Shown one piece after another: positions 1 to 33,062 of a stretch of 64,000 nucleotides of DNA (the first letter of the stretch is position 1; every line of letters starts with the position of its first letter). Origin of the DNA: Psammoneis japonica (taxonomy: Eukaryota); NCBI GenBank assembly GCA_008632985.1, contig QPGO01000073.1:310001-374000 (forward strand), written 5' to 3'. The notes beneath the pieces are model-generated. The model had not been told where the DNA came from and did no database searches. It worked only from the letters and a program-made list of their open reading frames with translations. The position numbers were made by a program, and so were the translations under genes.

Positions 1-1855
1 AAGAGTGCAGCTCTGACACCCTCACTGAGGAGAAATGCCAATTGAAAAATTGACTCACAGCAAATCTGATGAATGACTGTTGTGTGCAGAGGAGTCGTGC
101 GCATCACTGGATGTCAGGAAGCCCAGACAAAAGGCCAAAGTGGCACACACTGGTCCACCAGCAGTCATTGCCTGCATGACACTTCTCCAGAAAAAGAGAA
201 AAATGAGCCTTTGTGTGTTCTGCTCAACAGCGGAACATTGTCGACCACAATTTTGCAGAAGTTTGTGTGAAAATTGAGAATGAAGAAATCTGCTGCCAAA
301 ACTTGGGAAACCAAGGGTGGGCTCTTCACAACTGACAGCTGCTGTTCAACTCAGTTCTCATTGCCTGAATTTGACAAGCATGAAAAGAATGAAGCCACTG
401 TGCATGTGGACATCAGCGCTGCTTCTTCATGTTGCTGTGATGTGGTCATGGGACATGACTTGATGTCCAGTCTTGGAATTGTCCTGGACTTTGTGAGTGA
501 AGAAATTGAATGGGAAGATGCCATGACCACACCCATGAAGAACCCAATGCCATTTTGGATGCCAAAGTGTTCGCACTGATGGCCAGTCACATTGAAGAAT
601 CTCATGCTGTGAAAAGTCTTGATGACAGGATTGACAAAATCCTTGCAGCGACTGTCATGCTGCCAACCTCAATGATGCAATGGCTGCTGCAACTCAGCCA
701 ACTCCAGTGGAGCAGAAACAACTGAACTTCCTCCTAAAAAGATTGGAGCCCTTTTTTGTGGTTCTCCAGGCAAATGGACAGGGAAACCAGCGCATCTCAA
801 GGTGAAGCTGGGTGCATGTCTGCATCACATGATGTCATTTCCCGTCCACAAGCCTTGGAGGCAACCACTTGCCAGGAGGTTGTGAGACCATGCAAGCCAA
901 AAGTGCTAAGAAAAATGACCATTTGAGTGGGCAGCTCCAACCTTTGTTCAACCCAAAAAATGGCCAAGTTTGGTTTCCACCCAACTTCCCTGAACTGAAC
1001 AGTGGTCAATGCATGCACTGCATCCTCTGCCAGATGTTCAGGACATGCATCAGAAGCCAGAAGGTTTCAGGTGTGCAAACTCACTTGATTTAAACATGGG
1101 ACACCATCATGTCAAGTTGGTGCCATTTGCACAGCACTTGCACAATTGTCATGTTGTGGGGCAAACATGAACATTGCAGACCACCCATGGACATTTGTGG
1201 AGCTCCAGACATCTTTCAGGGGGCACATGAGTGAGCTGATGGCAGGTCCAGAGTTTGTCAGGATGCGTGTTGACACCACATGCCATGCACTGAAAAAGGT
1301 GACTTCAAAAACCACCTCTCAACACAGATGATCTTCATGTCGCTCAAACAAGCTGGTGTCAAGCCACCAGAAGTTGACTGCTTGGGCTTTCACATCACCT
1401 GAAATGGCGTTGAGCCAATGCTTGAGAAAGTGGAGCAGATTTGCTCCATTGCAACTCCTGCAACTTGCAAGGAATTGCAGTGTTTCATTGGTGTGTCGTC
1501 AATTGCTTTTGGGGCATGTGGCCTGGACGGTCTCATGTGCTGCCCCTTGGCCAGACTTGGATGAGCACAGAACAAAAAGCCTTCAAAATGTGAAGTGCAC
1601 TGTGTCAAAATGTGTGCTGTTGTCATGCCCAAATTTCAACAAACCCTTTAAGACACACACGCTGATGCAAGCAGTGCTCAATTGGGGGTGGTTGTGACAC
1701 AAAACAACTGACCCATTGCCTTCTGCAGTTGCAAGTTAAATGCACCAGTGCAGATGCACTGCACTGCAACAGAAAAAGAACTTCTGTCCATGGTTGAAAC
1801 ACTTGAGGAATTCCAAAACATCCTGTTTGACGCGTTCCAGCCCTGGCAGGTGGGA
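1..1855 (+). mobile_element. Degenerate Ty3/Gypsy LTR-retrotransposon pol fragment (protease-RT-RNase H), hypermutated
   Basis: Protease-like VLLNSGTLST (LLDSG), WETKGGLFTT and CDVVMGHDLMSSLGIVLDF (YD..GRDL). RT motif SLDLNMGHHH (LDLNMGYYH) at ~1081. RNase H motifs PNFNKPF, PIAFCSCKLN (PIAFYSRKLN) and EKELLSMVETLEEFQNILF. Many frameshifts and stops. Confidence 0.9.
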
Positions 1856-2051
1856 GCTCGTAGTGCTGACGTGTGACACAAATAATTTTTGTCATCCGTC
1901 GTATGTTTCGCACGTGCATTTCTACGTGTGACATTAAAAAAAAATTGTCCAGACTCGCTGTTTTGCGAAGCCCCAGACGTTTTACATGACGAATTTATAG
2001 AAACAACAATGCGCCACAGTTACATTCTTCAATGTCTGAAGAATGTAACTG

Positions 2052-5000
2052 GCTGCTCAAGGCTGTCCCCTCAGTCCTGCCTTTTCCTGCCTTGTTTTGG
2101 CTCACGCATTCCACCCCATCAACGATGAATTGTGTCATTGACTTCCTCCCCATTCCAAATCCGCCACCTCCTTGTGCATCGACAATGCTCACATCTTCCT
2201 TCCTTTCTCCCAGCTCCCTTGGTTCCTCAAATGACTTTCTGCTTGCGGCCCCCAATTTGGTGTCAAGCTCAACGCCTCCAAGACCCAAATCCTCACATCC
2301 ATCACCGGCTCCTCTCCCATCAACCGCCTCCCACCCACCAATGCTGCCGCACTCTCCAAAGCCCTGGCCTTCCTAAATCCTCATGACAACCCCCACATCA
2401 CACCCGAAATCACCACCGGCACCCACTTCCTCAGTCAACCCATCGGCTTGCCCACTTTTGCCCTCGATTTCCTTCACGACAAGGCCACCTCCTTTGCCAC
2501 CAACCTTCGCTGTCTCACCGTCCACCTCACTGACAAACAAACACAAAGCACGCTCTTCCGCAAGTGCTCCATCCCCTCCATCACCCACCTGCTGTCCAGC
2601 AACGCATGTTGCAACCTCATGCACTCCGACAACCTTCCACCCCCTTTTCAATGGACATCCTCCTTTTCACCGACAAAATCATCGGCCACTCCCTGTGCTT
2701 CCTCACCTGCCTCACCCAACACACCAACCCGTTCCCATCTGCCACCAAACTCATTGCCACCCCACCCATCTCCCTGGGTGGCATCGGATGCCGAGATGTC
2801 TCCACTGTCTCCATCCCTGCTCTAATCACCTCCCTCATCAGATCCATCCGCCATGACAGAAATCAAAGAAGAGCTGGATTTCGGCAGCCAACCTTCACGA
2901 TGAACAAGAAAATGGTGAACAGCAGCAGCGATTAAACCAGCAGCACAAATGCCAATGGATCACTCCATTCCTCGCTCGGGGAATGGAAATCTGTCAGTGA
3001 CAATGGTGCATTCTGGTGCGAATTCCAAAGTGGGCTTGGGTTCGAGTCAACACCAACCGCGTGTCTTGGCCGTCTGGGTGTCTGTGCATCTGGGCGTGCC
3101 ATCGTGGGCACAAGACCAGGCACCTCCACCTGGCCAGACTGAAAACTGTTCCTGACCCTGGAACACATGTCCCCATTGTTCACAGGGGCACCTGCAATGG
3201 TCTCTGAGCGGAGACTCATCTGCTGTTTAGACAGCAGCAAGGTGTTGCACCAGGTCTGGGCCAGAGTTCTACTTGCCATGTCCACCTGACGTCATCAACG
3301 CTCGAATGACGGAGAAGAACAAGAGCGAGTCATTCTTGTTCAAATCCTGTCAGATTAACAATCTCGATGACACTCGCAAATGCGACGAGCTCTCATCGAG
3401 TGACGAGAACGTCGCAAGGACACAAGTGCACAAGTGGTGGCCAGCTTCGATTCTGGGGTCCATTTGACAGCGAAGCCAGAAGCCACTCAAGAGAAATGGA
3501 AGAATGACATTCACAGTGTCAGGTTGATGGGGAGTGACAGAAATCAAAGAAGAATTGGATTTTGGTGGTCAACCTTAACACCAACCGCGTGTCTTGGCCG
3601 TCTGGGTGTCTGTGCATCTGGGCGTGCCATCGTGGGCACAAGACCAGGCACCTCCACCTGGCCAGACTGAAAACTGTTCCTGACCCTGGAACACATGTCC
3701 TCATTGTTCACAGGGGCACCTGCAATGGTCTCTGAGCGGAGACTCATCTGCCATTTAGACAGCAGCAAGGTGTTGTGCTGGGTCTGGGCCAGAGTTCTGC
3801 TCACCGTGTCTACCTGACGTCATCAACGCTCGAATGATGGAGAAGAACAAGAGTGAGTCATTCTTGTTCAAATCCTGTCACGCTGCACCAAACATGGCAT
3901 TCCACTCACCGGTGGTGCCATCTTCCACCTTCCCTCAAGCTGCTCTGCCACTCTCAGTTCATGGTCCAACCCTCGCTCCACTCTCTCCCCTTTGCCGCAT
4001 CTTCCGTCACTGCGCTCCCACCCTTCTTAGACTTGATTCTTCCTCCTTCACTTCTCTCACACACGCTGTCAAACACCACAACCTGCGCGGTCTCGCACAG
4101 CGCCTTCACCTGCACCATCACAAGCACAACACTCCCCCCCAATCCTTGCTGATCCTTCCATTCAACCGGCGCTCCCATCCTTGTTGTCTCCGCTAACAAG
4201 CCCATGCCTTCACTCCCTGTCCCGCACTCCCACCTCCAACCGCCTTCCGCCTCATCTCTTCACGATCCTCCTCCTGCACAAGCTCCGTCTTCCAATTGTC
4301 CCACCCAACCTCTCCCAACACAACTGCCCATGCGGCCATGCTCACCCCAACCCATGCGTCAATCACACCTTTGCCTGCTCCAAAATGCACAAAGGCCCCT
4401 TTGCCAAATCACATCCGTGACACTGTCCACACCATCATCGAAACCGTTGGCCCTCTGTGCGGTCTCTGTCTTTCTCGCCAACAAGTCTACCTCAACCCTG
4501 CTGGACTCCTGCCCGACCACCCTCTCAAACGCCCTGCCAACATCAGTGTCCAACTCACTCCGGGCTCTGCACCACCAAATGCCCCATCCACCCATCAATT
4601 CTCAGCCATCGATGTCACCGTGCCGCCAGCTCCCCCGCCTCCTGCACCTGGTTTGCCTGTCCCTGAAAACCCACTGAACAAAGCTCACCTCAGCAGCACT
4701 CGGGACAAGCTCCTTGGCCATTCTACATCCTCTGCTCATGGCTCCGACGTCATTGATGCCATCAACCAAGTGGGCCTCTTCCTCCTCCCTTTTGCCTTCT
4801 GCCACCTCGGAGGCATTGGATGTCACTTCCACATCTTCTTCTTTGGTGCCTCCACCACCACCTCCTCCTCCATCCCACCCCTTCCTCCCAAACTGCCCTG
4901 GTCAAGCCCATCCTCTTTATCCAATTTGCAAGCATCTTTCTCCGCCTTCACCAACTCACTTCTGGCTCCTTCCAACCTCCTCTCTCGCCCAATCCAATGC

Positions 5001-5297
5001 GGCCTGGAAACAACTTTCACCGGACCACTTCGGCTCCTCTTGTCATGCTGCAACACCCCCACTCTGGGCCTCCCAAATCCTCAGTCTCAATTTTGGCTTT
5101 GCTCTCTCCAGCTACCTTTCCACATGTCAAGCTTTTCTCCTCCGTCATCACACCATCACCAACTCCTCCTCACAACCGTCTGTCCGTACCCTCGGCCAAC
5201 CCTTCTTTCTCTCCATCCCCCAGCGCGCTCCGCGCGCCTCTCCCACCACCTATTTCCCCAGCCCAACACCTACCAACCCCATAGACACCATAAACAA
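2052..5297 (+). mobile_element. 5'-truncated non-LTR retrotransposon with RT, Zn-knuckle and restriction-like endonuclease (CRE/R2-like), interrupted by an LTR mini-element
   Basis: AQGCPLSPAFSCLVL (QGxPLSP) at ~2055. CIDN at 2175-2186 in place of YxDD. GVKLNASKTQIL and FLSQPIG. C-terminal CPCG..NHTFAC..NHIRD and RPANI..AIDVTV (PD..D RLE motif). Strongly C-rich strand. Ends are approximate. Confidence 0.85.
2854..3880 (+). mobile_element. Non-autonomous LTR mini-element (TRIM-like): LTR1 2854-3352, 182-bp internal region, LTR2 3535-3880
   Basis: Both repeats start TGACAGAAATCAAAGAAGA and end CAAATCCTGTCA (TGACAG...CTGTCA inverted termini). Purine tract GATGGGGAG lies directly before LTR2. 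The 5-bp flanks CGCCA / CGCTG are a mutated TSD. LTR2 lacks ~150 bp present in LTR1. Confidence 0.85.
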
Positions 5298-5376
5298 GCC
5301 TCAAGTCACGGGTTGAACTTCGAAAAGAATCGAGCTCGTGTTCTGCGACGAAGGTGCCTTGACCCACAAGAAGACA

Positions 5377-8300
5377 ATGAATGGACATCGGCGAGCGAGC
5401 CTCGGGCGTCTCGATTTTTCGGTCGACCGTCGGCTGTGAGGAAGAGCAGGGGAAGTGAATCAACTTCGGGGTATCTTTGACCGAATATGCGAACCCGAAG
5501 CACCCGTTCAAGTGTGCATGGTACACGGCTTGTCTGGAACGGGCAAGACGAGGCTCTGTAAGGAATTGACAAAGCACGTTCCGATATTTTTGGAAGGAAA
5601 ATTCGATCAATACGTCGACTTTTCATCGCCGTATTCGGCCATCGTTCAGGCCCTTGATGGGCTCGGCAAAGCTTTGCTGCTCCGAGAAGAGGACGATAAA
5701 GACGTGGAAGATTTTCGAAATGCTCTTTCTCTTGAAGGAAAAGTCCTCACCCGGTTGATCCCCAGCTTTGCTCAGCTCGTGCTCAATGAGGACTTGTGTA
5801 AGTCTTCGTCGGGAAACCTCAACATGGCCTCCGAACGCCTTGCTGTCGCCTTGCGGGCCTTCTTGCGCACCTTCTGCACGCAATCACGTCCATTGGTTCT
5901 GTTTATTGATGATGTACAATGGGGTGATCTTAACTCATTGCAGCTGCTGTCAGCTGCGGTTGCAGATCAAGAAACATATCATCTTTTGCTGCTGATGGGC
6001 TACCGAGATGAGGAGTCGAGCAGGATAGACTCGTTTCTTTCGTCGCTACCGAGTTCGGTTCACAATGTTCCTGTTAAGAACTTGAACACTGAAGCTTTAA
6101 ACGATATGGTGGCGGAGATCGTGTCTCGAGATCCCGACGACACAAAGGAACTGGCTGATCTCATCCACCAAAAGACGTTTGGCAACCCATTCTACGCTAT
6201 TCAGTTTCTGGAAGGTCTACAATGCGACAAACTGCTCACGTTTGATATAATGTCTGTGCGATGGAACTGGAAGATGGAAGAGATACGTTCCCAAACAGTT
6301 GTATCCGAGAATGTTGCCGACTATGTGACAAGAAGAATTATAGAATTGGACTATAAAGTCCAGCAGGTCTTACAGCTGGCCGCTTGTTTGGGCTTTCTCG
6401 TGGACCTACAGCTACTGCGAGATTTGCACGACTCATCATCCGAGTTCTATCCCGAGAATCAAACACCTGACGAATCACAAAAGGAGAATGAAACGGCGAC
6501 GTTTGACTCTTCTATGTCCGTCGCACAAGAAGAGAATCTCGTTGAGACTACGGATTTCCAGTGCAGGTTTGCCCACGATCGGATACAGCAGTGCGCGTAT
6601 GAGCTCATCCCAGCCGGCGGACCCCGTGAGCGGCTACACTTTGCAATCGGGTCACACATTTCTCAGCTTGGTCAGGATCGGTTTGTCTTTTTGGCAGCAG
6701 ATCAGCTCAATCGCGGTTCAACGTGTATCAAGAGTGATGCAGACCGACTCGCACTCATTCAATTGAACATTGACGCAAGCAAAGCTGCCCAGAAGAGGGC
6801 TGGCGTCGTTCTGGTGGCACAGTTTCTCTCCCGAGCTGTAGATCTGGTTAAGAGTTCTGACTGGGACAGATCGTACGACCTTGTTCTGGACCTGTACTGT
6901 AGTCTTGCCGAGGTCGAGTCGACTCGGGGAAATTTTGACGCAAGCAACGATTTGGTTAACACTGTACTGAAAAGGTCAAAGTGCGATAACGACACAGTCC
7001 GGGTATTGTCAGCTCGGGCGAAGGCACATTTTTCGCGCCTAGATTGTCAAGCAGCTATCAGAGACTCACGAACGGCGTTGCGTCTTCTCGGTGTTCGCGT
7101 GCCACCGTCGAACTCCCTTTTGCTCTATGTGGAGCTGAAGAAGACGAAACGGCTTTTAGGAAGATTCTCAGATAATGATCTCCTCGAGCTGCCGCCAATG
7201 AGAGATGTAGGCAAGGAAAAGGCTGTGATGATCTGTCTCGATTGTGCTGTTTACGCCTGGAGCAATGACGATCCGATCACGTACGTGATGTTCTGTCTTG
7301 GAATGATGAAACTGTCTCTCCTCTATGGAAAGAGCGACGCAACTCCACAGGCGTTTGGTGCTTATGCTGAAGTGCTTGCTTTCATGGGCGAGAAATCGCA
7401 AGCCTTCCGGTTTTCGCAGCTGGCCTTGAATTCCATTGCTTCTCGCAAGGCCATTCCTCCTACATATGTGTCTGCTTATTGCTTCGTCAATCACGTGAAG
7501 CTACCTTGTGCTCTGAGCATCGAGCCCATGCTCACCGCGTATAGAATTGGAATCGAAACTGGGGACATGCTGTTTGGGTGTATCTGTTTGGCTTTCTACA
7601 GTGACTTCTATAAGTTCTGTGGACTGCCCTTGGCACGTTTGCGTCGGATTTGCGTCGCTTTGCGGGTCAGCTCAAGCTTTGCCGTCAGACACTCATGCTT
7701 AGTATGATGTTGCCAAACTACCAGCTAGCGTTGAATCTGTCTGGGCAGTCGGATGATAGTGTTGAGATTTCATGGGACGTGATCAAGGTGCACGGATTCA
7801 TCAGTGAGAATGACGCGGATTTTGAGAACAATAATGCTACTATCGTTATTGATTACAACCAGATGTTTAATGCCTATATTCTCGGGGAACTGGAAATTGC
7901 TCGAGAGGCTCTCGATCGGAGTCTTGAGCCGTAAAATCGGACAAAGGAGGTTCGAGGGGAATCACTTTCTCAATTATATGTTTAACTTCCTCGATGGTTT
8001 TGTTGGACGTGAACTCTACGCTGTAACAAAGAAGCGACGATATCAGAAGGTTGCCGAGCAAGCTCTGCGATGGCTGACAAAGACAAATACGGTCGACACT
8101 TTTCCGCTTCGGCGTCTTTGGAAGCCCAGAAGGTGTCATTGTGCCGTTCTGTTGATGGAGAGACTGCTAGACAAGGTTACAACGAAGCCATTGCTCTTTT
8201 GGCACGCGCGGGTTTCACTCATTACTGTGCAATTGCGAACGAGCAGATTGGAAAAGTCATGCTAGTTTTGTTGGACCACGAATGGGCGGAGCACTACCTC

Positions 8301-9314: not shown

Positions 9315-9380
9315 TCAATTTGTGTTCACTCCTCAGATCTCTAGAATAGGAAGTCTTGAGGAGGTCATTCCAACTGCAAC
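9315..9380 (-). promoter_or_regulatory. Candidate SECIS element in the 3' UTR of the DsbA-like gene
   Basis: Minus strand reads AUGAC-CUCCUCAAGACU...AGAUCUGAGGAG-UGAA: an RUGAN/KGAW core flanking a CUCCUCA/UGAGGAG stem, ~40 nt after the stop. The apical loop lacks a clear AA. Confidence 0.65.
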
Positions 9381-9417
9381 AACTCCAACATATGGCTGTT
9401 GTATGTATTCAATTCTT

Positions 9418-14438: not shown

Positions 14439-15669
14439 ATGGCCGAGAACGTTCTTTGGCGCCGGTCTGCGACCAGGTTCGTCATAACATTCTGGATAAT
14501 ATCCGAAAAACTAATCAGTGCTGATTTGATGCACCCGAAATTCAACCCACGCCGTCGAACAAACGATTCACGAGAAGGCACGCCGCCTGCCAGGGTTCAG
14601 CTGGATCGGTTCATTTTTGAGCTAGCGCCCGTTCCACTGACATTGTCCGAACGAGACAAACGGGATATTTCCGATGTTCTGTTGCGACTACTCACCAAAC
14701 ATTTCTCCGAACAAGATTCAACCTTTGGCTTCTTGATTCTAGACAACCTGAAGGAATCTGACAGCTTAGTAACGCACGAACAACGAAACCGAAACTCCAA
14801 AATACCGCAGCATGGTCGACTGTTGCAATCATCCGCAGTTCGTTTCAGTACAGGCGGGATTGCTGCGTTCAATTTGCCGCAAGAACGAAGTCCTCCCACT
14901 GTGGACGAGATAATGAGGTGGGTTGCGCGTGCGATCGACTACGAGCTCGTTGTTAGCTTTCAAATCACTGAATATCAGTACATCGACACAGCAAAGTTCA
15001 ATCCTTTGATTTCTGTACCCTCACCGACCATTGCACCCACGCAAATGCCCACCCAATGTGAAGAGATAAGCAGCAGCACACCCTGGATCTTAATTGGAAT
15101 TCTTGTCGCAGCAGTTGGCTCGGACTGTGCATGGTCACTTTGACGGCATTTGCAATTTGGAAAGGACGAAGAAAATCTCGGCTGGGCATCTATCAAGCTA
15201 AAGGAACAGGCCGAGACTTGCTGCTGGATAATAGCAATACAATGTCCCGGAGTAGCGACGCAAGCGTTTGCGACGAGGATGAGTTCTCTGACCATGTCTA
15301 CGACGTGGAGGCATTGGCGGAGGACGCGATAAGTGCATGTGATCAGTCAGTGGACATTGCTACTATGAATCATTGGGATCGGCTTCATTCTTTGAGACGG
15401 AGTCATTCCAGTATGAAATGGAACCTGTCATTCGAAAAGATATGCTTCACACCACGGACGCATTTCTGATAGGCAGTTTCACGAACCAACCAAGGAAACA
15501 ACGATACAACAAAAGAGGTGACTACAGCTCTTTTGCTTCTGATAGGAGGAACGACTCTGCTAGAGATAGTAATGCAGGTCTGACCGCCGCTTTCCAAGCT
15601 AGTCGTTCCCCATTTGTTTTTGAAGCCAGCGACAACGTTGGAGAAAGGGTGGAAATACGCCCGCACTAG
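14439..15669 (+). CDS. Uncharacterised single-pass membrane protein (frameshifted); probable paralogue of 23558-24181
   Basis: Chained ORFs 14307-15143, 15131-15469 and 15373-15669. P/T-rich linker PSPTIAPTQMPT, TM WILIGILVAAVG, then basic KGRRKSR. Start uncertain. Confidence 0.55.
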
Positions 15670-16412
15670 ACTGCCTAAAAGTCTAGTCGATGCTTTACAT
15701 GTAACTATTTGAAAAAGAATAGCAGATTTCCCATCGATGGCACTGCAGAAACAATGAAAATGTCTCTATAGACCTGCATGATGCCGGGTATCGACAGCGA
15801 AATCTTTATGTGTAGAAGTATTTGAAAAGTTTTCCCTACCGGTAGATTTTTGTATGCAGTTTCTTAGGAAATCCTCTTTTCCAACTTATTCGAGAAAGAC
15901 ATTGCATTTGCCGAGAGCATGAATCGAACCAAGCAACGCAATAAATGTCAAGTCGGTCCATTCGTTGCCTCAACGCGGAACCGACAGTCATCTACAGGAT
16001 ACCACGCCGGATCAATCCAACATCCTCCTGGAGGACTATGCAAGGCCCTTCTATCTTCAATTACTACCCACAACTCCACCAGGACGGTACCAAAGGCTCA
16101 TCGACCCGCATCATGAGCCGCCCGACAAAACATAACGATCATGACGCAAATTATGCGGAGGCGTATCCGCTTGGCTGCCGCGTCCTCAATGGAAAGAAAG
16201 TCTCTATAAAAACTACTACTTTCATCTTGATCTTCTAGTCTCCTAACAGCAGAAAGATAATAGATGCATTACATAGGTACAGCAGATCTTATCTGTTGTG
16301 GGTAGTAAGCAGAAAAGGCTGCCTTACCTGCGCGCAGTAACAGGTGGATACTTTGGTCAGCCAAATTCAATCCACTTATCACTAGCCCATCATTATTTCA
16401 CTCCTATTTAAC

Positions 16413-18249: not shown

Positions 18250-20650
18250 AAGCTGAAATTGACACACTCTAGAGATGTGCTGAGTCTCCTAGCCCATGGG
18301 TTGGCCTGTCATTGCTGCTGCAGTCATGCAGTGCAAGTTGAGTCTTCTGCTCTCACTTGTTTTGTGCTTGCGGCCGACACGTCGGCTCTGCGCTGGATGG
18401 ACGAAGAACAACATCTCGTGTGCAAAGTTTGGCTTGGATGTCGTGCAGCAAAACACCCCAGAGGACTGATGTCAGCACCCTCAGCACTGTCAAACTGGGT
18501 CAGTTTCTTCACTCACTTGCTGTCACTCATGTGTTGTCAGATTCCATGCAAGCCTTGCCATTGGCCTTCTTCAACACACTCGACATGCTGCTGTGGCAGC
18601 AGCCCTTGACCTTGCGGGGGAGGAGACCTCAGCATGACAGCCAGAATGCTGCAACATTCTCAGTGCATGTGCTTTGCCAATGTGAGTGACAAGCCAGCAC
18701 TCCCAAGCCTTGCTGATTTGGGTGTCAGCCCAATTTTTGATGCTCTTCAGCGATGACATTTGAGAAGTCATTTTTGCTGTGGCTCGGCACCCGTGTGCTG
18801 TGAGACACACAGACTGAGTCATTTCAGATCAGAGCAGCAATGGGCACCAGTCACTTCCCTTGTGGCGCTGTGTGAGCATGTGCCTGAGATCATGCAGCTT
18901 CAAGGACACCTGTCAAGGGGCTCTCTCTGCCCCCTTTGCACAGTGTGACACTGCCAAGGGCTGCCAGCACAGTGGCCAGGCAAGGTGTCAGCATGCAGAT
19001 TTTTCTTTGCAGAGCTTCTCAGCAAACATGTCTTGTTTGCAGCTGGGCATTGCAACAAGCTCTGGCGCACTGGAAATCATGTCCAAGCTCCTCCTTCCTC
19101 TGCCAAAGCCAAACTTTGGATGGAAGGCCCAGGGATGAAAAAACTGTGCCACACAGCATGACCAACATTGTTGTCCACATGTCCACAAAAACTTCAAGCT
19201 GCTTTTTTGCCATGTTCTGGGTGCCACTCCTTCTGGAGAGCTTGAGCTTTGCCAGCATCTCACAAAAATGCTTCAGACTGCACCTGTTGGGTGGTTCCTG
19301 TGGACAAAACCACAGTGTGGGCTGCACATGCAACCAAACATTTTTTGTTGGTGGCTTTCAAATCACGCTGAATTTTGTCATTGTGGTGCTGGCTCAGAGC
19401 AATGTTCAGCCCGCCGACTGGTTTTTTTCCTTCCCCAACCATTTGACCCAAACCAGTGCCGCCTGCCCAAAACAAAAAGACAAGCAGCAGCATGCCACAC
19501 ACACATTGACTGGAGAGCTTGAGCTTTGTCAGCATCTCATGAAACTGCACCAGATTTTGCACTTGTGAGGTGTTCCTGTGGATAAGATTGCAGCGTGGGC
19601 TGCACACACAACCAACCATTGTTGTGTTGGTGTCTTTCAAACAATGCGCTGCTGATTCTTGTGAGTGTGGTGCTGGCTCAGAGCACCGTTCAGCCCGCTG
19701 ACCATTTTTTTTTCTTTGGCAGCCATTTCACCCACACCAGTGCCCACCCACAACAAAACAACAAGCAGCAGCATGTCACACACATTGACTGGAGTTTTTG
19801 CCCCCCCCCTTCCGTCATCACAGAGTCAGGCTGCTCATGTCCACTTTGGCGGCATTTTGCAGCGGGGGAAGGGTGGTGTGCAAAATCTCAGCTGAGTGCC
19901 ACCCACCAGGCTGAAGAGAAAGAATGTCATGCCAAGATGCACTTGCTGCTAGAGACTGGCAGCACAGCATCCCAGAGCAGTGGCACAAGTGTTTGCAGAT
20001 GACTCTCTGTGGCCAGGACACCCAACATGATGCGGAGCTCTGCTGGCCAAGGGTGCAAGAACAAGCATGCACCAGGCACTGGTCAGCCTGCAGATGCCAT
20101 CACTCCAAAGTCACTGGGGTTGGTTTTGCTCTTTGAGGCCAAGTCACTCAAGCATGCTTCCAGCTGGTGGCTGCTTCATGAGCCAGAGCCAGCCAACGAA
20201 ACAAAGATGCACAGCTCGCGCGAGTTGTGGTTGCGCAGCTCTTTGGCTTGTGCCAGATCAAACAACTCTGTCAGAGACAGTGGCACAGTCCTGGCTCATG
20301 CTTTCCCAGCCAGTCATCTCCCCCTGTTTCTTTGCAAAGCCAGCGACAATGTTGGAGCAGGGGGCTCTCTGTTCTTGCAGCTTGCAAGCGCAGCTCTGGT
20401 CTCCTCTGCCCCCTGAATCCCAGCCAGCATTTTGACACTTTGCACACAGCCATTTGAAAAAAGCCTTTGCATCAACAACAATGCAAAAGCACTTGAGGAT
20501 CTTTGTGGACCTGTGTGATGCCAAGTGTCAACTGCCAAACGTGTGTGCACACGGGGCGTCAGCTGTTGGCTCTCCAGACACTCCCAGACAGCTCTGCTCC
20601 ACAACAAGAAGATGAGGTGCTGATTGTGCTTTGCAGTTTCTCAGGGAATC
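18250..20650. mobile_element. TA-depleted degenerate repeat/transposon relic with an internal ~280-bp tandem duplication
   Basis: Near-total TA loss and Tyr-free spurious ORFs in six frames. Duplicated unit ~19236-19512 / ~19513-19790. Weak hAT-like hints only; family unassigned. Confidence 0.6.
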
Positions 20651-21064
20651 TTCTTTTCCAATTTATGTTCAAGAAGGACATGGCATTTACCAAATGCATG
20701 AATCGAACCAAGCATTGCAATGTCAAATTGCTGGTGTGAGAGATGCCTCCACTTCCGCAAATCTCAGCCGCGACCAAGGCGTGACCACTCAGTCTGCGTC
20801 CGCGATCATCTCAATTTTTTTGGCCTTTGCACCTCCTTGGGAGTGGCCTTTGCACGACTGGCTTCCGCTCGGCTCAACGCTCGCCATGATGGCCGCACGA
20901 CGAACGACGAGAACATTCTCTCACTCGTGTTGCCGTCACTTCTTGTCACTCTCGCCGCCGTCACGATTCTTACAGTAGGCCTCAAAGCGCTATGCGTACG
21001 CTACACGTTCTTATTTTGTCTTCCCCATCTTTCCACAGTCTGCTCACACAATATTTTAAGAAGG

Positions 21065-22627: not shown

Positions 22628-22687
22628 TTTATAAGAATCAGGGTGCACGCTTAGTAAAGTGCGTTGTAGAAATAAGCTCTCTAATAA

Positions 22688-24616: not shown

Positions 24617-26020
24617 ATGGCGTCTCCTTGTCAGCTTCGTGTTCTACTGCTTGTCTTTCTATTTTCTGCTTTGACGGTCCTTTTGCAAACACTGCAGCTG
24701 CGCAGAGGGAGTGTCAGTAGGAGAAAAGAATGCCAGTTGTTGTTTCAAGAGCATTGTCAAAAAGTGATGGCATAAATGTCGAGGAATTGCAAAGAAATGG
24801 GGGATACAATCAGCAGCATCCATGCGATTGCTTCATCAAATTGCAAACAGGAGTTGCGCAACTACAATCGTGAAGAGGACTTTGTACATTTTCATCACTG
24901 TAAGTCTCGTCCTTGATTTCTCGCATTTTACGAAAAGCTTTTCTTAAAAATCCATTTCTTCAACTTTCTTCTCCACAGTAATGAAGACTGGTGGCACCTC
25001 CATTTCACTCTTGCTGGAACAAGCATTCACGGTAGACCGCATTTTACCAGGATCGCGACATTCACGCCAGTTTAATTTCCAAGAAGCAAACGATAAGCTT
25101 GCCGACAGAGGCGACATCGGTGCCACAAGAAATTATTTGGTCTCTTTTTCCCACAATGATATACGACCGGGTTTTGGTCCAAACCAATCCAAGTTCTCAA
25201 AATTTATTTCGAGTCACAATGTGACTGGGGGTAAACGATTACGAGCGATTACAATGATTCGAGATCCTGTGTCGTTTCGTGCTTCTCACATGGCCATGTG
25301 GATGTGTGGTCTGAACCAGGCCGTTAGCAAGCACAATAAAGGTCGGGTTGCCCTGGGTCTTGAGCCACAATGTGGGCTTGAACTCAATCTAACGGCCTTG
25401 ATCGATGTCAGAGTATACACAATTAGAACAAAGTGCAGGGAGGGAGGCTATCACATTCCTGAACACTGCGACTTGCTGCGGGATGGAAAAGATCCTCTGG
25501 AACATTGCCGCTCGCCTCAAAATTTGCTACAATCGGAAAATTACGACCGACACATGCACAACATGTACAAAGTCATCATGGGGAGGTATTCATTGCAAAG
25601 CGGAGATAAGGAGGTATACCTACAGCAGAAGAAGTGGCACAGTATACTTTGGAGGACTTGGGTGGACTGAATCCAAGAAATGATGGAGATTCTGCAGTCG
25701 AAGCGGACTTTATCTGGTTTGGGATTACCGAGCGCATGGACGAAAGCATTTGTTTATTTTATTACATGCTCCAAATCACCCCAGTCCTAGCAGAGACGCC
25801 AACCGAAAGAGTCATGAAATGCTCGCCATCGTCCTGGTGGACAAAGCAAGACAAGGAAGAAGTAATAAAAAGGGAAACGCTCGACTATGCTGTTTATAAT
25901 GCAGCAAACGCAATCATGGACGTGAGGCTGGCCAAGATGCGGAATGAGATACAAGATCAACTTGATGCTGGTGGAACGCTAGAGTCGATACCCCATGTTG
26001 CACCTGGGTGCTTTCGTTGA
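24617..26020 (+). CDS. Golgi-type sulfotransferase (Sulfotransfer_2 / Gal-3-O-sulfotransferase-like), with frameshifts
   Basis: Signal anchor; FVHFHHL|MKTGGTS (5'-PSB) across intron 24900-24978; TMIRDPV (3'-PB); WFGITERMDESICLF. Confidence 0.82.
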
Positions 26021-27725
26021 TTTCATCTCGATTTTTCTCGGTAGCATCTAAAAGAACGTGTGATTGGTGGTCGTCCCCGACACAATTCCTCCAGTGCGTT
26101 GTTGCGGACATTGGATGCAGGATCGGTTCACTGCCGACAAGTCAGGGGTAGGAAACAAGAGCTTCCAGAAGTTTTCCCTCTACAGTACTCTTGAATTCTG
26201 CCGATTGATTTTGCGGCGGCAGTAGTGTTCGCCCTGCGTTACCCACATTATTCCAATGATCCAGTTGAGGATGGTTCCTCGATTTGCTCCTCCCTTTGAA
26301 ACACGGGGCTAAATGACTTAAGGCGCTATTGCCGTATGCTTGTTTACACATTGAACATGACTTGGCTGAACTCATTTTGTTTGTCCCTTAACCCATCTGG
26401 AGCGCGTGTTCCTCGCTGATGCTGTTGCGTCATCACCACTTTGACGATTCTGCAGCAGAGCACACTGGCGCGGGAAAACATTGCGCTTGCGGCCTGCGGC
26501 ACAACGCAACAAGGCCAGCAGTAACCGCTGCTCATGAGCTTTGTAACATTCGCAACAGCATGTGCCAAGAAGCCTGTAACACCTGTTTTTACATGTCCGG
26601 GACTCGTTGTTGATGTGTGTTGCACCACCACAAAACGCATGATGATGGATTCTGTCACCAACTGCAAGTGCTGCGGCACCTCATTTTTTTCCATTTTGCC
26701 TTTGATGATGCGTGCTGCCAGTGGCCAGCAGTTGACAGAAAGATGCGCAGCTTCACCAGCTTGGTGTGGTGGTTCTTTTGCAAGCACTCCAACTGTGTGC
26801 AATGGAAGCATGAAAAAACAGGGCCAGCTGCTTCAAAAAGGAGTTGTCAAAAAAAGCTCACAAAAGTGCATCAGAGGAGGAAATTTTGCAAAAAAGCATG
26901 GGAGGGTTGTGCAGCCAGCATCAGAGCTGTGCAACTGCTTGGCCAGCTTGTGCAAACAAAGAGCTGTGCAGCTGCAATCCCAAAAAACATTTTTCTTGCT
27001 TGTTTCTGGCATTGCAGGTCTTTCATGAACTGAAACAAGTGCCCCAAAAATCATGCCAACAACAATGCTGACAGCTCCTTGCATGTGCCTCTGTGCCACC
27101 AGCTGACACCACCAGGCAGATGGCTCTTGTGCAAGCAAGCCAAGGCAGCACAGAGCTGGCACCATGAAGTGATTGCTGCAAATGGCCACCCATCTGACAG
27201 TGCCTTTTTGCCACAAATGTTTTCTCACCTGCTGAAGGGCACACTGCACCCCAGTGCTCTTGACTTTGTTTGGTGTGTGTGAGTGTCCATCCAGTTTGCT
27301 TGTGATGCTGGGTCCTGCGAAGAGTGAACAAGAGAGAGAGAAAGCACCACTTTGCAGTGGTGCCACAAGAAAGAGCTCTTGTGTTTTTGTTGCAGCACAG
27401 CTGCACCAGCTTGCCACCAATGCATGCCACCACCTGCTGAACAAAGAAAGAAGATCTAGCCTGTGGGTCAAGCAGCAGATCATGTGGGTCAAAACAGGAG
27501 TCCCAAAAATCACAGCACAAGAAGAAGCAGTGGCCCATTGCACACTTGTTGAGTCCCGAGTGTTTGATGCAGGCGGGACCGACCAATCACTTCATGCCGG
27601 CGACCGGCAACCATCACATCGCACGGCGAACAAAAACAAAAAAGGTCAACAATGGCAATGACGAAGCCAAGCTGAAAGCATCCCATCCACTGAACAGATG
27701 CAGACACACATGCTTGCAATGAACA

Positions 27726-28556
27726 ATGATGGGACGCTTCAAGATTCTGTGTGTCTTTAATCCAGAAGATGCCTTTGGCTTTGTTTGCACCCATGACAAT
27801 GAGCAAGGATGTCCTGAGTTCATCGCTCTCAACACACCACGAAACAAGGCCAGCCGCATTGGCAGTGTCATGCACTTTTTGTCCAAACACATGATTGAAC
27901 ATGGCAATGCAGTTAGAAGCAATGGGTTGGATTTTCTAACCAAGCTGGTCAAAGGCAACCGCAAGGCAGAGCTCATGCGCACACATGCAACCATGACAAA
28001 CAAGAATGCGCAGCTGTTTGAGCTCCTTCCTTGGTTTGAGTTTGACCGGCTGGAGGACTGGGAAAGTCACGAACCTGCACCAAAAGGCCACGATGAGTTT
28101 GTGTGTTCCATGTCAGAAGTTTGGCAGACAAAAGGCAGCTTCATTTTGCACATTGATGGGGACAAATCGAGTTGTGCCTTGGTGAATTTGAAGCATGTTG
28201 ATTCAGCTGTTGCCTTGCAACATGTTGATGACTGGACAGTTGACTGGGACATGAATCTCATGTTGGAGCAGCAAGCATTTGTTTGCACCCATTCTCGACA
28301 CTTTGGCAAACTTGCCAAAGTTTGTTTTCGCGAGAAGAACATTTGTGCCTGTTGCAGCCTGATTGACAATGAAAAGTTGAGCAAGTGCAGGCAGTGCAAG
28401 CAAACTTTGCATTGTTGCCACAAACACCAGGCAGCCAACTGGCCTGCCCACAAAGGCAAGTGCAAACAGATGAAAAGCATGCGCGACAACAAGAACAAAC
28501 ATGGAGGCCGTCGATCCAACAACAAACAGGGTGACAAAAGCAAAATGAACAAATGA
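27726..28556 (+). pseudogene. MYND zinc-finger gene, hypermutated but still open
   Basis: CACC...KLSKCRQCKQTLHCCHKHQAANWPAHKGKC matches MYND (CxxC..CxxC..YC..Q..W..H..C) with Tyr positions replaced. The 276-aa ORF has no Tyr. Confidence 0.8.
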
Positions 28557-30502
28557 TTCTGATGAAAGTGGGGGTGGACAGAAGATTGCACAGTTCTGAC
28601 AAACAGACATTCCATGGGACCATTGTTGTGTCTCATTCAAATCAGAGAAGAACAGAGACCCTTCTCCAGATTCAAAAGTTGTGGGATCACTCTCCAAAAT
28701 GTGAGCAGAGCTGTGAGTTTTTTTCATTTCTTGGACACTTGCAATCCATCACTTCTGTTGGGATTTGTCATCATTGGGTCTTGGCAACAAACCCAATGGC
28801 AGAATTGATGTTTTCATTTCATTTGGTTTGCAAAAGTCTGGACCAACTGCAGGCATTTTGCTCATCGCGCACGAGGTTCCAATGTTTCAAGGAACATTCT
28901 GGTCTGATGAGCTTGTCACATTTTCTTGTGAGTTTCATGCGGATGCCCTCAAAACCCTGTGTTGTTGACAAGGGGATCACTCTGTGGGATCATTCCACTT
29001 CAATGCAGTCTCAACCAAGCCATCTGCATTTTGTGGGAGTGTTCGTTCTTCACAATGCAGCAGTCTCTTGCCATTCAGTCCGACCAGAAGAGATCTTGTC
29101 AAGACAAATCACACGGACACAAATGTTGACTCTAGAGAAAGATGCTGGCTCACAGGTGTGCATCAGTTTTCAACAATGTTGTTCTTGTGCGCCAACCTCC
29201 ACAGATGTTTCTCTGTCATTGCGCATCTCACACAAGCAGAGGACAACCAATTGCGGGAATGTGATGCTGCCAAGCTCTGCCACCATCATCATCCTGAATG
29301 AATTGCGCATCAAGCTGATGATGAAGATTGTGCTTGGCATGAATGTCAAAACCTGGAGCATGATCTGCAATGGGGAATGATGAGGTCTCCAACATGCAAA
29401 GCAAACAATGCAATGCTGAAGACTGGGCAGCAAGACTGGAGTGATGAAGGACGCGGCAGGGCCAAGGAAAAGAACACATCAATGAGATGGAGAAATTGAG
29501 GGCACCTGCAGCCATGGGTGTTTTGGCTCAATGATGCACCCGGTGGATCTTTTGCACCCAAGCATTGTCACAATGCTCATGTGACTTGTTTCTGTGAACA
29601 AACTTGAAGCCAACTGCAGCACTTCATGCACGCACATGACCCACCTTCATTTTTCTTCATGTTTCCCAGATTTGTGCAGCCCGTTGGTCTACGGCGTTTT
29701 CAGTGTGTGTTTTGCATGCATGATTTTCTGCACACTTCACAACAGTGCACCCTCTCCCCAAAGTTTGAAAAATGAGAGTGTGCACAGCCATGGCGGTGAA
29801 AGACTTTACCCCATTGGCCGATGACAGCAGCTCAATGCATGGTGAAGCCTGCCATCCTTCTGGTTGGTCAAGATGGGGTTTCGTTTGGGTGCAGCTTGAA
29901 TTTTGTGATCGCAAGTGTGCTGTCACGAATCCGCCGCATCCAGAATGCTGAGCTCTGGTGTGTTGTTGTGTGTTGTGTGCACGCACATCACAAACTTGCT
30001 TTTCTGCAGTGTTGGCATGATCGCGCACATCAGAGTTTTGCATCCAGAGTCATCACAAGTTGCCATAAATTGCACTGTTCAAACAAGGCATGTACAAAAA
30101 GAGGTTCATTGGTTTTTGATGCATTCGCCAACAACACATCCGTCTTCTCCAATTTCTGTGTCCAGATCCAGAAAGACTGCAGGCGGTGCTTGTTCCTGCA
30201 GCTCTCAGAATCACCATGTGAAAAGTTCTTTGCCACACATGAAACTCTTCAAAAAAGGCATGCACAAAAAGAGCTTCATTTGTTTTTGATGTGTTCACTT
30301 GTGTTGCATCCGTCTTCTCCAATTTCTACACCCAGATCCAGAAAGACTGCAGAGGTGGAGAGTGGGGAGGCAACCCATTTGAGGTTGCCTGAGTTGTTGG
30401 GCTCATTTTAAAAGGCTTCCCAAGTCTCTCCGCTGTTTGTGGTCAAGAGCAGGGGGGTCGACTACAACAACCTCAGCAGCTGCCAATTCCATGTCGATGG
30501 GT

Positions 30503-31000
30503 CGGGAACCAGCAGCAGAAGCTCCCAAATCGGCGGCGGTGGATGCACCTGCAAGTCCACATTGCGGTTTCAATTGGTTGCTGCTGTTGTCCTGCACACT
30601 CTCACAAAGCATTTTACATTTGTTTGCAATGAACAAGGTGGATCAGAGCAATGTCACTTCACCTGATCCAGAATCAGCTTTGCGGGGTCAGGAACCGGCA
30701 GCAGAAGCAACCGAATCTGCCACGGCGGATGCACCAGCAAGTCTGCGTTGCGGTTTTAATTGGTTGCTGTTGTCATCTCATGCACTCTCACAAAGTGTTT
30801 TGCACTTCTTTGCAGTGAATGAGGTGGATCAGAGCAGCGCCACTTCACCTGGTCCAGAATCAGCTTTGCGGGGTCAGGAACCGGCGGCAGAAGTGACCAA
30901 ATCGGTGGCAGCGGATGCACCTGCAAGTCTGCGTTGCGGCTTCAATTGGTTGCTGTTGTTGTCCCATGCACTCTCACAAAGTGTTTTTCACTTCTTTGCA
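30503..31000. repeat. Three tandem copies of a ~185-bp unit
   Basis: GGAACC(A/G)GC(A/G)GCAGAAG...GGATGCACC(T/A)GCAAGTC...AATTGGTTGCTG..CACTCTCACAAAG recurs at ~30503, ~30690 and ~30876. Confidence 0.9.
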
Positions 31001-33062
31001 ATGATTTGCCATTGTGAACAGAGTGTCACTCCTCGTTTGAAGGCGTTGCATTTGGATTGCTTGCCATGTCTCAGCATCAAGATTGTGCTCTCAACTGCAT
31101 GGCAGTGCAAGTGGAGTTCAAAGAGGTCCAAGCTTGTGCTCATGAAGGCAGTGGTGCACTCCACTTTTGCTGCAGTGAGCTCTAGCTCCGCCATTTTGTG
31201 CATCAGCTTTGCACCTTTCTTCTCTTGGAATTCAGTCGTTGCCTCTTTGAATTCATTGACAAGCCTTTGTTTCCGTCTGCGTCATTTAAATTAAGTGCAA
31301 ACAACAAAACAGAACGTTTGCAATGCAGGTGATTTTAAATTGCAGGTTTTGCAGGAATGGAGGGTGGGCACTCTCACAGGGAAAATGGTTGGCTGTTTCA
31401 CAGTGAATGGTGTTGCCTCGTGGGACAGTTGCGGGCTCCACAGCAATGAAGTTTGTCTTTCACAGTTGACAAATTGTCACCACGTACACAACCAATGAGG
31501 TTTGAAACCATGAAATTTTTAACTGTGACAGATTAAAAAATTCACTGTGAGAAAGTTGGTCTGATTGCCACATTGCATGCTCTGATGGAAGCCAGCATCA
31601 AGCAGCACAGAATGACCAGCTGCACCCCTTGTGAGAACAAGGGCCATGTGACAAAACCTGGCAGCATGGTTGTTGTCTCCAGTGCCACCCACATGGGCTG
31701 GATTGCACAACCATGAACAGACAAAGATGGCCTCTTGAGCTGGCAACTTCCCTTCTTGGTTTCCCACGTTCTTGGCTGCATTCTGATGCTGCTTTTTTGA
31801 CAGACGAGAGTGGCAGGAACCCCTCCTTGCACCTTTGAACTGCCAGAACAGAAGGAAGGGCAACCCATGGTGCCAGTGCGGATGTGTTGTTTGCACTGCA
31901 AAACAACACTGGACAACGCCAAAAGCAAAAACAAATTGTGAACAAAATTTTGCTGCAGTGACCCAACTGAAAAAAGGAAAAAATTGAAGCAAACAAACTT
32001 GTGCATTGAACAGGACATTGACACAATTGGTGCTGCAGGTTGAAATTGTTGCAGTCGTTGAAAAACAGCTTTGCTGTGGGGAAAAAAGAGGTGGCAATCA
32101 AAAGGCAAAAAAAACTGGCATCACACCCAAAAAGAGCAGGTGAATTTGCACAGGGCATCCATGTGGAGAACACATGGGAAGGATGCCTGCTGGGAGAAAT
32201 TGGGAGAATGTGTCTGTTTCACGCAGAAGAAGACAAATTAAATCCGCCAGAATTGTTGGTTGATTTTGACCATGCTGCAGGAGTCATGCAGGCCCCACTG
32301 GAGTTGTGGAAACAATGCAGGTTTGTCACATTAAATGAGGGTTGCCCTGCATTTGAGGAATGGATGCCCAATGGATCAATGCAAAGCACAAGCAGTGCAG
32401 CAACTGAAGCTTTGCCCATTTTCATGTTTGTGCAGCTCAACATGACAACCCAATGCTCCACAGAAAAGGAGGCACTTCAAAGACATGTGTGTGCTGTGCC
32501 TGTTGCCATCAAATTGCCACAATGCTGGGCTGCCATGCTGCTCTGCAGGAGGTGGCCAACCCAACAGCATGGCTGTTGAGTTGTGCAAAAATGTCATGGC
32601 TCCTTTTGAGAGTGCAACCCAGCACTGTCTGACTGAACAGGCAGGAGTGACCTCTCTCTGCACGCACACACACACCCTCTGGTGGGATGATCAACAAGAA
32701 GAACCTGCTCTGGGCAAAAACAGATTTGGAGATCTTCTTGTGCAAAGAGGCAGTGGTGAGATTAAACAAGAAGTGAACATGGCACCCGAAGCTTCCAAAC
32801 AATCGTCAGCTTGCAAAACAACACAAACATCGAATCGCAGGAACAAGCAGCAAATGTTCTTGAGCTCACCTTGAGGTGACAGAGCGAAAATCAATTTTTC
32901 TGACTGGACACTGGGGCCTGCCTGATTGTGGTGGGAGTCCATGTGGGCTGCAGCAGTGAGAATGAGGTGTCGTGTGTGCACAGCGTTCTGTCGTCGTCGA
33001 CGGGTCGTCATGATGTCGTCATCCGTTCGTTCAAGCGAGTCCCGAATGGACCAAACCATTTT

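Follow-up and report, generated by a model that had tools for sequence, protein, structure and literature searches.

TpA-centred transition hypermutation of silent DNA blocks in a Psammoneis japonica contig, with a probable origin in adenine deamination

Results

Two kinds of sequence in one contig

We analysed a 64,000-nt window of Psammoneis japonica DNA (GCA_008632985.1, contig QPGO01000073.1, positions 310,001 to 374,000 of the forward strand); all positions given below are those of the window. Ordinary gene-bearing sequence alternates in it with blocks from which the dinucleotide TpA has been almost erased. The blocks were probably produced by transition hypermutation of silent DNA, in which TpA is changed in place and on both strands to TpG or CpA by deamination of adenine, at a rate graded by the 3' neighbour of the adenine. 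This would be hypermutation of the kind recently described in Bigelowiella natans.

Dinucleotide observed/expected (O/E) ratios were computed along the window in 500-bp steps, and the block limits were obtained by a two-state segmentation on TA content. The segmentation gave six blocks with sharp edges and lengths of 1.7-8.9 kb (Table 1, in which the first block, 1-5250, is shown divided). The six blocks sum to 26,744 bp and contain 108 TAs, whereas the other 37,256 bp contain 1529. The TA density is 1.5-5.9 per kb in the blocks and 33-49 per kb outside, and the loss in the blocks amounts to about 95% of TpA and about 70% of CpG, with a doubling of TG and CA. The O/E ratios of ordinary sequence are about 0.3-1.0 for TA, near 1 for CG, and near 1.1-1.3 for TG and CA; those of the blocks are 0.00-0.15 for TA, 0.03-0.8 for CG, and 1.4-2.3 for TG and CA. 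Three blocks lie past position 33050, where an earlier reading of this DNA (the earlier note) had stopped, and they show the same pattern. For per-block counts, 1-5250 was split around the island at 1851-2050, giving seven trimmed core blocks. In all TA-poor blocks GpC is raised (O/E about 1.3-1.8) and ApT lowered (about 0.6-0.8), a handy second marker for such blocks.

Table 1. TA-poor blocks of the window and the intact sequences related to them
Feature	Position	Strand	Description
Block 1	1-1850	+	Decayed Ty3/gypsy-type reverse transcriptase (RT)-RNase H relic; 5 TAs, all YTAR
Ordinary-composition island	1851-2050	.	200 bp between two TA-poor blocks; 10 TAs and 13 CGs (1859-2012)
Block 2	2051-5250	.	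C-rich, CpG mildly depleted; internal duplicates 3047-3357 and 3575-3885
Intact reference for block 3	14899-15955	+	Source of ancestral states
Block 3	18291-20970	+	Mutated paralogue of the intact neighbour 14899-15955; 284-bp internal tandem duplication 19233-19794 (Tandem Repeats Finder, TRF)
Block 4	26591-33077	.	24 TAs in 6.5 kb; MYND-finger relic; 2.7 copies of a 186-bp tandem repeat 30499-31004 (TRF)
Intact ankyrin unit 1	39760-41560	-	Gene 40720-41472 (-); reference for mutated copies in blocks 5 and 6
Block 5	41949-43694	.	3 TAs in 1.7 kb; flanked by two intact ankyrin genes; 42531-42626 paralogous to normal 39978-40072
Intact ankyrin unit 2	43919-45760	-	
Block 6	45676-54527	.	38 TAs in 8.9 kb; mutated ankyrin copies 46949-47900 and 49796-50692 (-), plus mutated flanks of intact units
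Intact ankyrin unit 3	54391-55610	-	Ordinary composition; block 6 boundary cuts the homologous unit just beyond the gene
Block 7	56879-58607	.	8 TAs in 1.7 kb; flanked by SDR and bestrophin-like genes

TA loss between intact and mutated paralogues

Ordinary BLAST identified an ankyrin family with three intact and two mutated copies. A BLAST in the purine/pyrimidine alphabet, which is blind to transitions, added further intact/mutated pairs, namely block 3 with 14899-15955 and the flanks of the ankyrin units, where mutated 53785-53960 and 54034-54120 match normal 39760-39931 and 40157-40248. Seven pair alignments with about 3,360 columns were obtained, showing 12-25% transitions and 5-11% transversions, and we read the transversions of the older pairs as ordinary decay. 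The alignment of block 3 covers 895 columns (67% identical, 25% transitions, 8% transversions). The 130 TAs of the intact copies appear in the mutated copies as TG (39), CA (52), TA (9) or something else (30). The 30 other outcomes comprise 25 single transversions (TT 9, TC 6, GA 6, AA 4) and 5 double changes (CG 3, CC 2), compared with 91 transitions. Counted per strand in the pairs, A>G occurred at 102/272 TA sites, versus 15-17% in the other 5' contexts. A three-way alignment of ankyrin copies places the changes in the mutated ones, with A>G at 6 of 16 TA sites and 2-5% elsewhere (copy 49740). The region 39.7-55.6 kb as a whole is a tandem array of ankyrin units, in which intact units (40.3-41.6, 44.8-45.8 and 54.4-55.6 kb) alternate with hypermutated ones (42.0-43.7, 46.9-47.9 and 49.5-50.7 kb).

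Surviving TAs and a half-site model

The earlier note had claimed that the surviving TAs are mostly YTAR (Y, pyrimidine; R, purine), the only context that is TAY on neither strand, and had proposed TAY>TGY (RTA>RCA on the other strand) as the preferred change. The counts bear this out. YTAR makes up 64 of the 108 TAs in the blocks and 278 of the 1529 outside (Fisher odds ratio 6.5, p=1.5e-19). All TAs in 1-1850 are CTAA or TTAA as the note had stated (735 CTAA, 907 CTAA, 1091 TTAA, 1649 TTAA, 1737 TTAA), and, in line with the near absence of ATAT/GTAT-type sites that it had noticed, ATAT, ATAC, GTAT, CTAT and ATAG are all at zero in the trimmed cores. The 87 TAs of the cores divide into 59 YTAR, 18 YTAY, 7 RTAR and 3 RTAY, and their densities relative to normal DNA are 0.33, 0.07, 0.03 and 0.01, respectively. 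YTAR is the commonest class in five of the seven core blocks, ties in 18500-20600 (1 vs 1) and trails in 57000-58520 (3 vs 4). Equal depletion of all 16 NTAN contexts, which the note had named as the outcome that would speak against a preference, was rejected in favour of a purine/pyrimidine split (likelihood-ratio 111.7, p=4e-26).

We fitted the 16 contexts with a strand-symmetric half-site model, whose premise is that both adenines of a TA are hit independently at a rate set by their own 3' neighbour. This gives xTAy a survival of exp(-(k[y]+k[complement of x])). The fitted k values by 3' neighbour are A 0.37, G 0.83, C 1.94 and T 3.58. The four-rate model fits better than a purine/pyrimidine split (likelihood-ratio 22.8, p=1e-5), and its residual deviance is 18.0 (12 df, p=0.115). 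The preference proposed in the note is thus supported and becomes a graded one. The base at +2 is A in 55% of the surviving TA-R half-sites and in 33% of those in normal DNA, so TTTAAA-like sites are the most protected.

The excess of YTAR might have arisen without any rate preference, by the formation of new TAs from TG or CA, by an odd ancestral composition or by selection, for example on TTAA target sites. Only 9 of 17 alignable TAs of the mutated copies are TA in the intact copy, so some "survivors" may be new, and the ancestral composition that we used is a proxy. Against this explanation, the sum of xTGy and xCAy is flat over the four classes (1397, 1344, 1274 and 1447), and new TAs would be about 23% YTAR (1274/5462) and not 68%. 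A baseline corrected for flank composition within the blocks keeps the excess (YTAR expected 28.1, observed 59; chi2 55.2, 3 df, p=6e-12). In the pairs, TA was retained at 0 of 23 RTAY, 1 of 44 RTAR, 3 of 31 YTAY and 5 of 32 YTAR sites, so that YTAR is itself often converted, as the note had allowed, and is still retained more often than the others (4/98, p=0.04). The 3'-pyrimidine rule also recurs at non-TA sites and in bulk products, where no survivors are involved. We consider an excess without preference quite improbable.

The flank rule in the absence of survivors

Three kinds of survivor-free evidence support the TAY preference: an excess of mutation at N-A-Y, the per-strand order of the TA contexts, and the bulk products. 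In the pairs, A>G at non-TA sites was seen at 162 of 683 adenines (23.7%) before a pyrimidine and at 85 of 850 (10.0%) before a purine (p=5e-13). The polarity of these changes was tested by forward and reverse counts limited to 5' A or G, avoiding CpG effects. R-A-Y showed an excess toward the mutated copy (104/451 forward vs 58/403 reverse, p=0.0016), while R-A-R showed none (57/571 vs 61/567, p=0.70). Given this polarised excess at R-A-Y, which is smaller than that at TpA, a "TpA only" rule would not hold strictly over long time. The per-strand A>G counts at TA itself are TAT 32/61, TAC 24/65, TAG 28/78 and TAA 18/68 (TAT vs TAA, p=0.004).

The bulk composition of the blocks was compared with that produced by simulating the process on normal DNA of the same window. 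Converting TA and CG in this way gave 221.0 TG+CA per kb, and 221.1 per kb was observed in the blocks (145.5 outside). The ratio (YTGY+RCAR)/(YCAY+RTGR) is 1.45 in the blocks and 1.57 if the C-rich block is left out. The simulated ratio is 1.16 for a context-free process, 1.46 for the fitted context model and 1.59 for this model with 10% N-A-Y leakage. In tiles of 1.5 kb, the ratio is higher in the blocks than in normal DNA (p=0.009). ApT falls from 66 to 52 per kb in the blocks and GpC rises from 58 to 76, which only 3'-pyrimidine A>G reproduces. The sum of squared errors (SSE) over ten symmetrised dinucleotide classes is 225 for the context model with V-A-Y at 0.10, 668 for the context model at TA only, 1077 for the context-free process at TA only, and 1341 for the context model with leakage at all non-TA adenines (V-A-N 0.10).

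Action in place, on both strands and up to sharp edges

Duplicates inside the blocks differ mainly at YpR steps, with 35 CA/TG double differences, 33 CG/TG or CG/CA and 13 TA/TG or TA/CA. The youngest duplicates (3047-3357 and 3575-3885) show 15 differences, all transitions, of which 14 fall in the TA, CG, TG and CA classes. The copies of the 186-bp repeat in block 4 likewise differ in CA/TG, CA/CG and CG/TG states. Such independent TG and CA outcomes in duplicates of the same block indicate that the process acted on the DNA in place. We looked for strand bias and found TG about equal to CA in six of the seven blocks; both strands are affected alike. The exception is 2051-5000, with 1089 C and 528 G on the plus strand, 337 CA against 209 TG and long stop-free frames rich in P, S and T; it is the only block that breaks both strand symmetry and the product-asymmetry rule. 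One block edge crosses a repeat unit whose sister copy is intact throughout. An edge inside a repeat unit points to a chromatin domain rather than a sequence family as the target.

These observations bear on the idea that the edits were made in RNA: double-stranded transposon RNA would have undergone ADAR-like A-to-I editing, and the edited copies would have been reverse-transcribed and inserted. In favour of this, one block is a retrotransposon relic, and a 5' U is favoured by ADARs according to the Discussion of the B. natans preprint (10.64898/2026.01.13.699255). However, the blocks hold mutated neighbouring host genes and their flanks in tandem order, with one edge inside a unit, and tandem copies a few hundred bp apart have independent TG and CA outcomes. 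ADARs prefer a 3' G, unlike the process seen here, in which TAG (k 0.83) is slower than TAC (1.94) and TAT (3.58). The new mutations reported in that preprint also occur in single-copy DNA (10.64898/2026.01.13.699255). An origin in edited RNA is very improbable.

We further considered a sequencing or assembly artefact, in which methylated CpG and modified TpA are systematically miscalled. Miscalls of modified bases resemble transitions, and both lost dinucleotides are palindromic steps of the methylation-carrying sort. Over 1.2-3.8 kb, contigs built from 31-mers of run X1 (word depth about 60-80) show 0-2 differences from three blocks, although X1 may be the assembly's own source data; block 6 has 1-2 differences over 1.2-3.8 kb, and block 7 is matched by a 1812-bp contig with 0 differences. 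Compared with the intact copies, the mutated ones contain indels and 5-11% transversions as well, and their outcomes are cleanly TG or CA and not mixed. The artefact is the least probable of the explanations that we weighed.

At 47222 the window has T (a surviving TA, TTAT) and the X1 contig has C at full depth (68.9/68.9), which is a T>C at TpA inside a block. This difference between two data sets labelled as one organism is a possible sign that the process is recent. In the same block, the X1 word depth reaches 23,212 (48004-48670) and 1,778 (48671-49337), compared with about 60-150 elsewhere. The region 48425-48700 shows many variant joints and loose ends in X1, and a very high-copy repeat thus lies inside TA-poor block 6.

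CpG decay in the same blocks

The 148 CGs of the intact copies appear in the mutated copies as TG (53), CA (47), CG (23) or something else (25). C>T is raised only at CpG, where it reaches 112/306 per strand, versus 15-17% in other contexts. A single deaminase for both losses would be expected to favour a 5' T outside CpG as well, and no such rule was found for C>T (TCH 16-20% forward vs 16-18% reverse). Since the rise of C>T is restricted to CpG, the CG component looks, on the sequence evidence, like ordinary decay of methylated CpG, a second process separate from the TA process in the same blocks. The trinucleotide counts of CpG C>T are TCG 42/94, ACG 31/81, CCG 20/57 and GCG 19/74; decay is thus somewhat faster after T, the cytosine context of amphioxus ADAT2 on DNA, and the numbers are too small to build on. 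The two losses are partly uncoupled, as 2051-5000 has a TA O/E of about 0.1 and a CG O/E of 0.4-0.8.

The co-occurrence of TA and CpG losses in the same blocks is what error-prone repair would predict. In such a scheme, deamination of 5-methylcytosine produces frequent T:G mismatches; these attract mismatch repair together with a polymerase-eta-like enzyme, whose errors at A:T pairs build up in methylated blocks, much as happens during phase 2 of antibody hypermutation. The polymerase eta hotspot WA includes TA. The earlier note had asked for a comparison with this signature, and the WA motif does not appear: AAR (30/326) and AAY (64/261) behave like GAR/GAY and CAR/CAY, with no enhancement by a 5' A. 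The TA outcomes are 91 transitions and 25 single transversions, near the background transversion load, and the B. natans events are transitions in 230 of 231 cases (10.64898/2026.01.13.699255). The partial uncoupling in 2051-5000 also argues against a repair origin, which we regard as improbable.

Contents of the blocks and the neighbouring genes

Block 1 (O/E: TA 0.00-0.06, CG 0.14-0.19, TG/CA 1.4-2.1) has a Pfam match to RT_RNaseH_2 (E=4.9e-8) when translated with X at stops. The adjacent island at 1851-2050 may be a later insertion or a protected element. Block 2 has O/E ratios of 0.07-0.13 for TA and 0.40-0.80 for CG, and its GC skew falls to -0.53. In block 4, a stop-free frame at 27723-28553 (+) ends in a MYND-finger pattern; the nearest Atlas clusters are zf-MYND (score 0.91), which we treat as a lead only, and the Pfam search did not detect this relic. 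The pattern has H in place of the family's conserved Y, the change expected from TAY>CAY. A perfect two-copy 21-bp tandem repeat (33072-33112) lies right at the edge of block 4, about 30 bp before the pseudouridine synthase open reading frame (ORF). This ORF starts at 33140, about 60 bp downstream of the block end. Ank Pfam matches were found on 50050-50571 (-) in block 6.

Full six-frame Pfam searches of 2051-5200, 18300-21000 and 26600-33050 (X at stops) matched 0 families. Of 34 stop-free frames taken from the other blocks, one matched ankyrin repeats and 33 matched nothing in Pfam. In the frames searched, Pfam revealed no viral gene in the blocks; their recognisable contents are one gypsy RT-RNase H relic, dead ankyrin copies and the MYND relic.

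The genes of the ordinary stretches encode a STAND ATPase, phosphoenolpyruvate (PEP) carboxylase, DSBA, a class 3 lipase, a RING protein, pseudouridine synthase, RF-1, cyclophilin, a HAD hydrolase, ankyrin proteins, an SDR, a bestrophin-like protein and an MFS/SPX protein. The distance from a block edge to the ORF of the neighbouring gene is roughly 60-300 bp. The best named relatives of the PEP carboxylase are all diatoms, with 63-72% identity (Stephanodiscus, Ditylum, Odontella, Nitzschia, Thalassiosira, Skeletonema, Chaetoceros and Epithemia). The protein collection contains nothing close to the ankyrin protein (best 39%), and no deaminase was found among the 22 window ORFs searched. In run X2, recorded as "DNA?", stretches of 102 and 105 nt bounded by GT..AG are skipped at 44238-44341 and 56140-56246. 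X2 looks like spliced RNA by appearance, and two short introns in normal regions are confirmed by it. Its RNA-like contigs match 40764-41563 with 0 differences, and most TA-poor bins lack X2 cover, from which we draw no conclusion on expression.

Discussion

A model for the erasure of TpA

We propose that the blocks are silent non-genic DNA, made up of transposon relics, dead gene duplicates and unidentifiable DNA, between housekeeping genes. The target would be an adenine with a 5' T, and its 3' neighbour would set how fast it is hit (T > C > G > A), with a weaker activity on any N-A-Y. A TA would be lost once either of its two adenines is hit. RTAY, with two good half-sites, would go first, followed by YTAY and RTAR with one each. 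YTAR has no good half-site and would survive longest, TTAA above all. An enzyme would deaminate adenine to hypoxanthine, and replication would then read this base as G. In the same blocks, methylated CpG would decay separately, in the ordinary way, to TpG and CpA. An adenine deaminase is our leading guess for the agent. In the tRNA adenosine deaminases, the target A34 follows U33 in all cases known to us, in agreement with the 5' T rule. The fastest site here, TAT, is not known as a natural context of the anticodon loop, and in this respect the process differs from TadA and ADAT2. An engineered TadA variant is described, in the portion of its report consulted, as editing A within "YAC" (PMC13109818).

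The same results could be written on the opposite strand as thymine chemistry. The T in R-T-A would be modified, for example to 5-hydroxymethyl- or 5-formyl-uracil by a TET/JBP-type enzyme, and would pair with G, resulting in T>C. All sequence results are symmetric in this respect, and the same flank rule holds on the other strand (RTA>RCA, R-T-N>R-C-N). C in the mutated copy from T in the normal copy is most frequent after a purine (ACC 21/68 and ACT 25/89 vs CCC 8/81). In dinoflagellates, 5-hydroxymethyluracil takes the place of T, with a preference for TpA and TpC, and T>C mutations are induced by 5-formyluracil. Nothing in the window discriminates this chemistry from adenine deamination. 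To our knowledge, no such thymine modification occurs in diatoms, and the authors of the only measured case of TpA hypermutation propose deamination of adenine, which by analogy would speak against it. We consider thymine modification unlikely, though less so than the other alternatives.

Several points weigh against adenine deamination in silent blocks as we have described it. Deamination of A and a change on the paired T are indistinguishable from sequence. The direct product direction in the pairs is as predicted in 33 cases and opposite in 21 (p=0.13). RTAR gave 23 CA and 10 TG, as predicted, while YTAY gave 10 TG and 11 CA; within the latter class TTAY conforms (8 to 1) and CTAY is reversed (CA 10, TG 2). 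Blocks 1-1850 and 2051-5000 have no product asymmetry (ratios 1.13 and 0.77). The pairs are unpolarised except for one three-way family, their background transitions are high (about 10-16% per site), and 8 of the 17 alignable TAs of the mutated copies are not TA in the intact copy. The window's normal DNA is only a proxy for the ancestral composition. A recognisable transposon domain is present in one block only, so the blocks do not demonstrate "foreign" DNA as the target. Natural tRNA adenosine deaminase substrates exclude U-A-U as far as we know, yet TAT is the fastest site here. Amphioxus BjADAT2 deaminates A and C in DNA, and the contexts given in the part of the report consulted are GAA (A) and TCG (C), not T-A-Y (PMC10354150).

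Comparison with known hypermutation systems

The closest known case is that of B. natans (Mettrop et al., bioRxiv 10.64898/2026.01.13.699255, April 2026), cited here from parts of the preprint. Of 302 new mutations in its mutation-accumulation lines, 231 fell in two integrated viral regions, and 230 of these were A>G or T>C, all on TpA, at a rate of about 6e-7 (10.64898/2026.01.13.699255). The B. natans genome is described as containing 124 clusters with depleted TpA and enriched CpA+TpG, and an ADAT2 homologue is proposed as the agent (10.64898/2026.01.13.699255). The P. japonica blocks resemble this case, as far as the preprint was consulted, in A>G/T>C centred on TpA, in discrete regions with TpA depletion and CpA+TpG enrichment, in transposon-type domains among the depleted sequences and in a deaminase as the proposed agent. 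They differ in that B. natans is a rhizarian in which live mutation was measured, whereas here a diatom-like host carries a fossil footprint only. The TA O/E is 0.00-0.15 here and 0.45 in the B. natans viral region, and the blocks here include dead host-gene copies with no viral gene recognised. By analogy, we judge that this is probably the same kind of process, a known kind described once, very recently, in another lineage. The blocks here would then be the saturated long-term footprint of the process measured live in B. natans. The main text of the preprint contains no analysis of flanking bases or CpG, in the parts consulted, and the words trinucleotide, tetranucleotide, flanking, context and CpG do not occur in it (10.64898/2026.01.13.699255). 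The novel elements of the present case are a diatom-like host, a graded rule for the 3' neighbour, leakage to N-A-Y, the +2 effect, the CpG co-decay and the dead host-gene copies.

Fungal repeat-induced point mutation (RIP) resembles the process here in being a region-limited transition hypermutation at the DNA level, which leaves a dinucleotide footprint, destroys repeated or foreign sequence and affects both strands. RIP is mostly C>T at CpA and enriches TpA, according to the part of the source consulted (PMC2621366). Here, in contrast, TpA is erased and A>G dominates, with C>T at CpA (79/512) like that at CpC and CpT. RIP hits both duplicates, whereas intact and mutated copies of one family stand side by side in the window. 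RIP was therefore rejected as a candidate: TpA is depleted, C>T is not CpA-specific, and intact and mutated copies coexist. The decay of methylated CpG in silenced repeats fits the CG component and leaves TpA untouched. ADAR hyper-editing also produces A>G clusters in repeats and favours a 5' U, but ADAR acts on RNA. Polymerase eta mutagenesis at WA (similar to single-base-substitution signature SBS9) shares mutations at A:T with a TA hotspot; it differs in that no 5' A effect is present here and nearly all changes are transitions.

Literature searches found no report of TA>TG hypermutation in diatoms. The consulted text of a Phaeodactylum tricornutum mutation-accumulation paper contains no mention of TpA or of "transposable" (PMC6604790). 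None of 41 environmental diatom PEP carboxylase loci (235,117 bp) had a TA-poor window, although these loci are short and mostly genic and say little about the repeats of other diatoms.

Biological meaning

A broader reading is tentative and, in our judgement, has well under even chances. Diatoms and chlorarachniophytes may share a natural T-A-Y DNA adenine deaminase. Recruited to chromatin that is silent and probably methylated, it would erase TpA as an "adenine RIP". Under this doubtful extension, transposons, viral inserts and dead duplicates would lose their reading frames and regulatory sites along with TpA. In its boldest form, the same ADAT2-like enzyme would also speed the decay of (T)CpG, so that both palindromic YpR steps end as TG or CA.

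That a diatom-like genome carries a saturated footprint of this kind suggests a system of greater age or wider spread among the SAR (stramenopiles, alveolates and rhizarians) groups. The flank rule (5' T, 3' T>C>G>A, N-A-Y leakage and +2 A protection) would serve as a fingerprint of the enzyme. We know of no natural enzyme that deaminates DNA adenine with this specificity, and the adenine base editors used in the laboratory could be obtained only by evolving TadA, so the agent would be of practical interest. For annotation, such blocks hide transposons and pseudogenes from homology searches, and alignment in the purine/pyrimidine alphabet recovers them.

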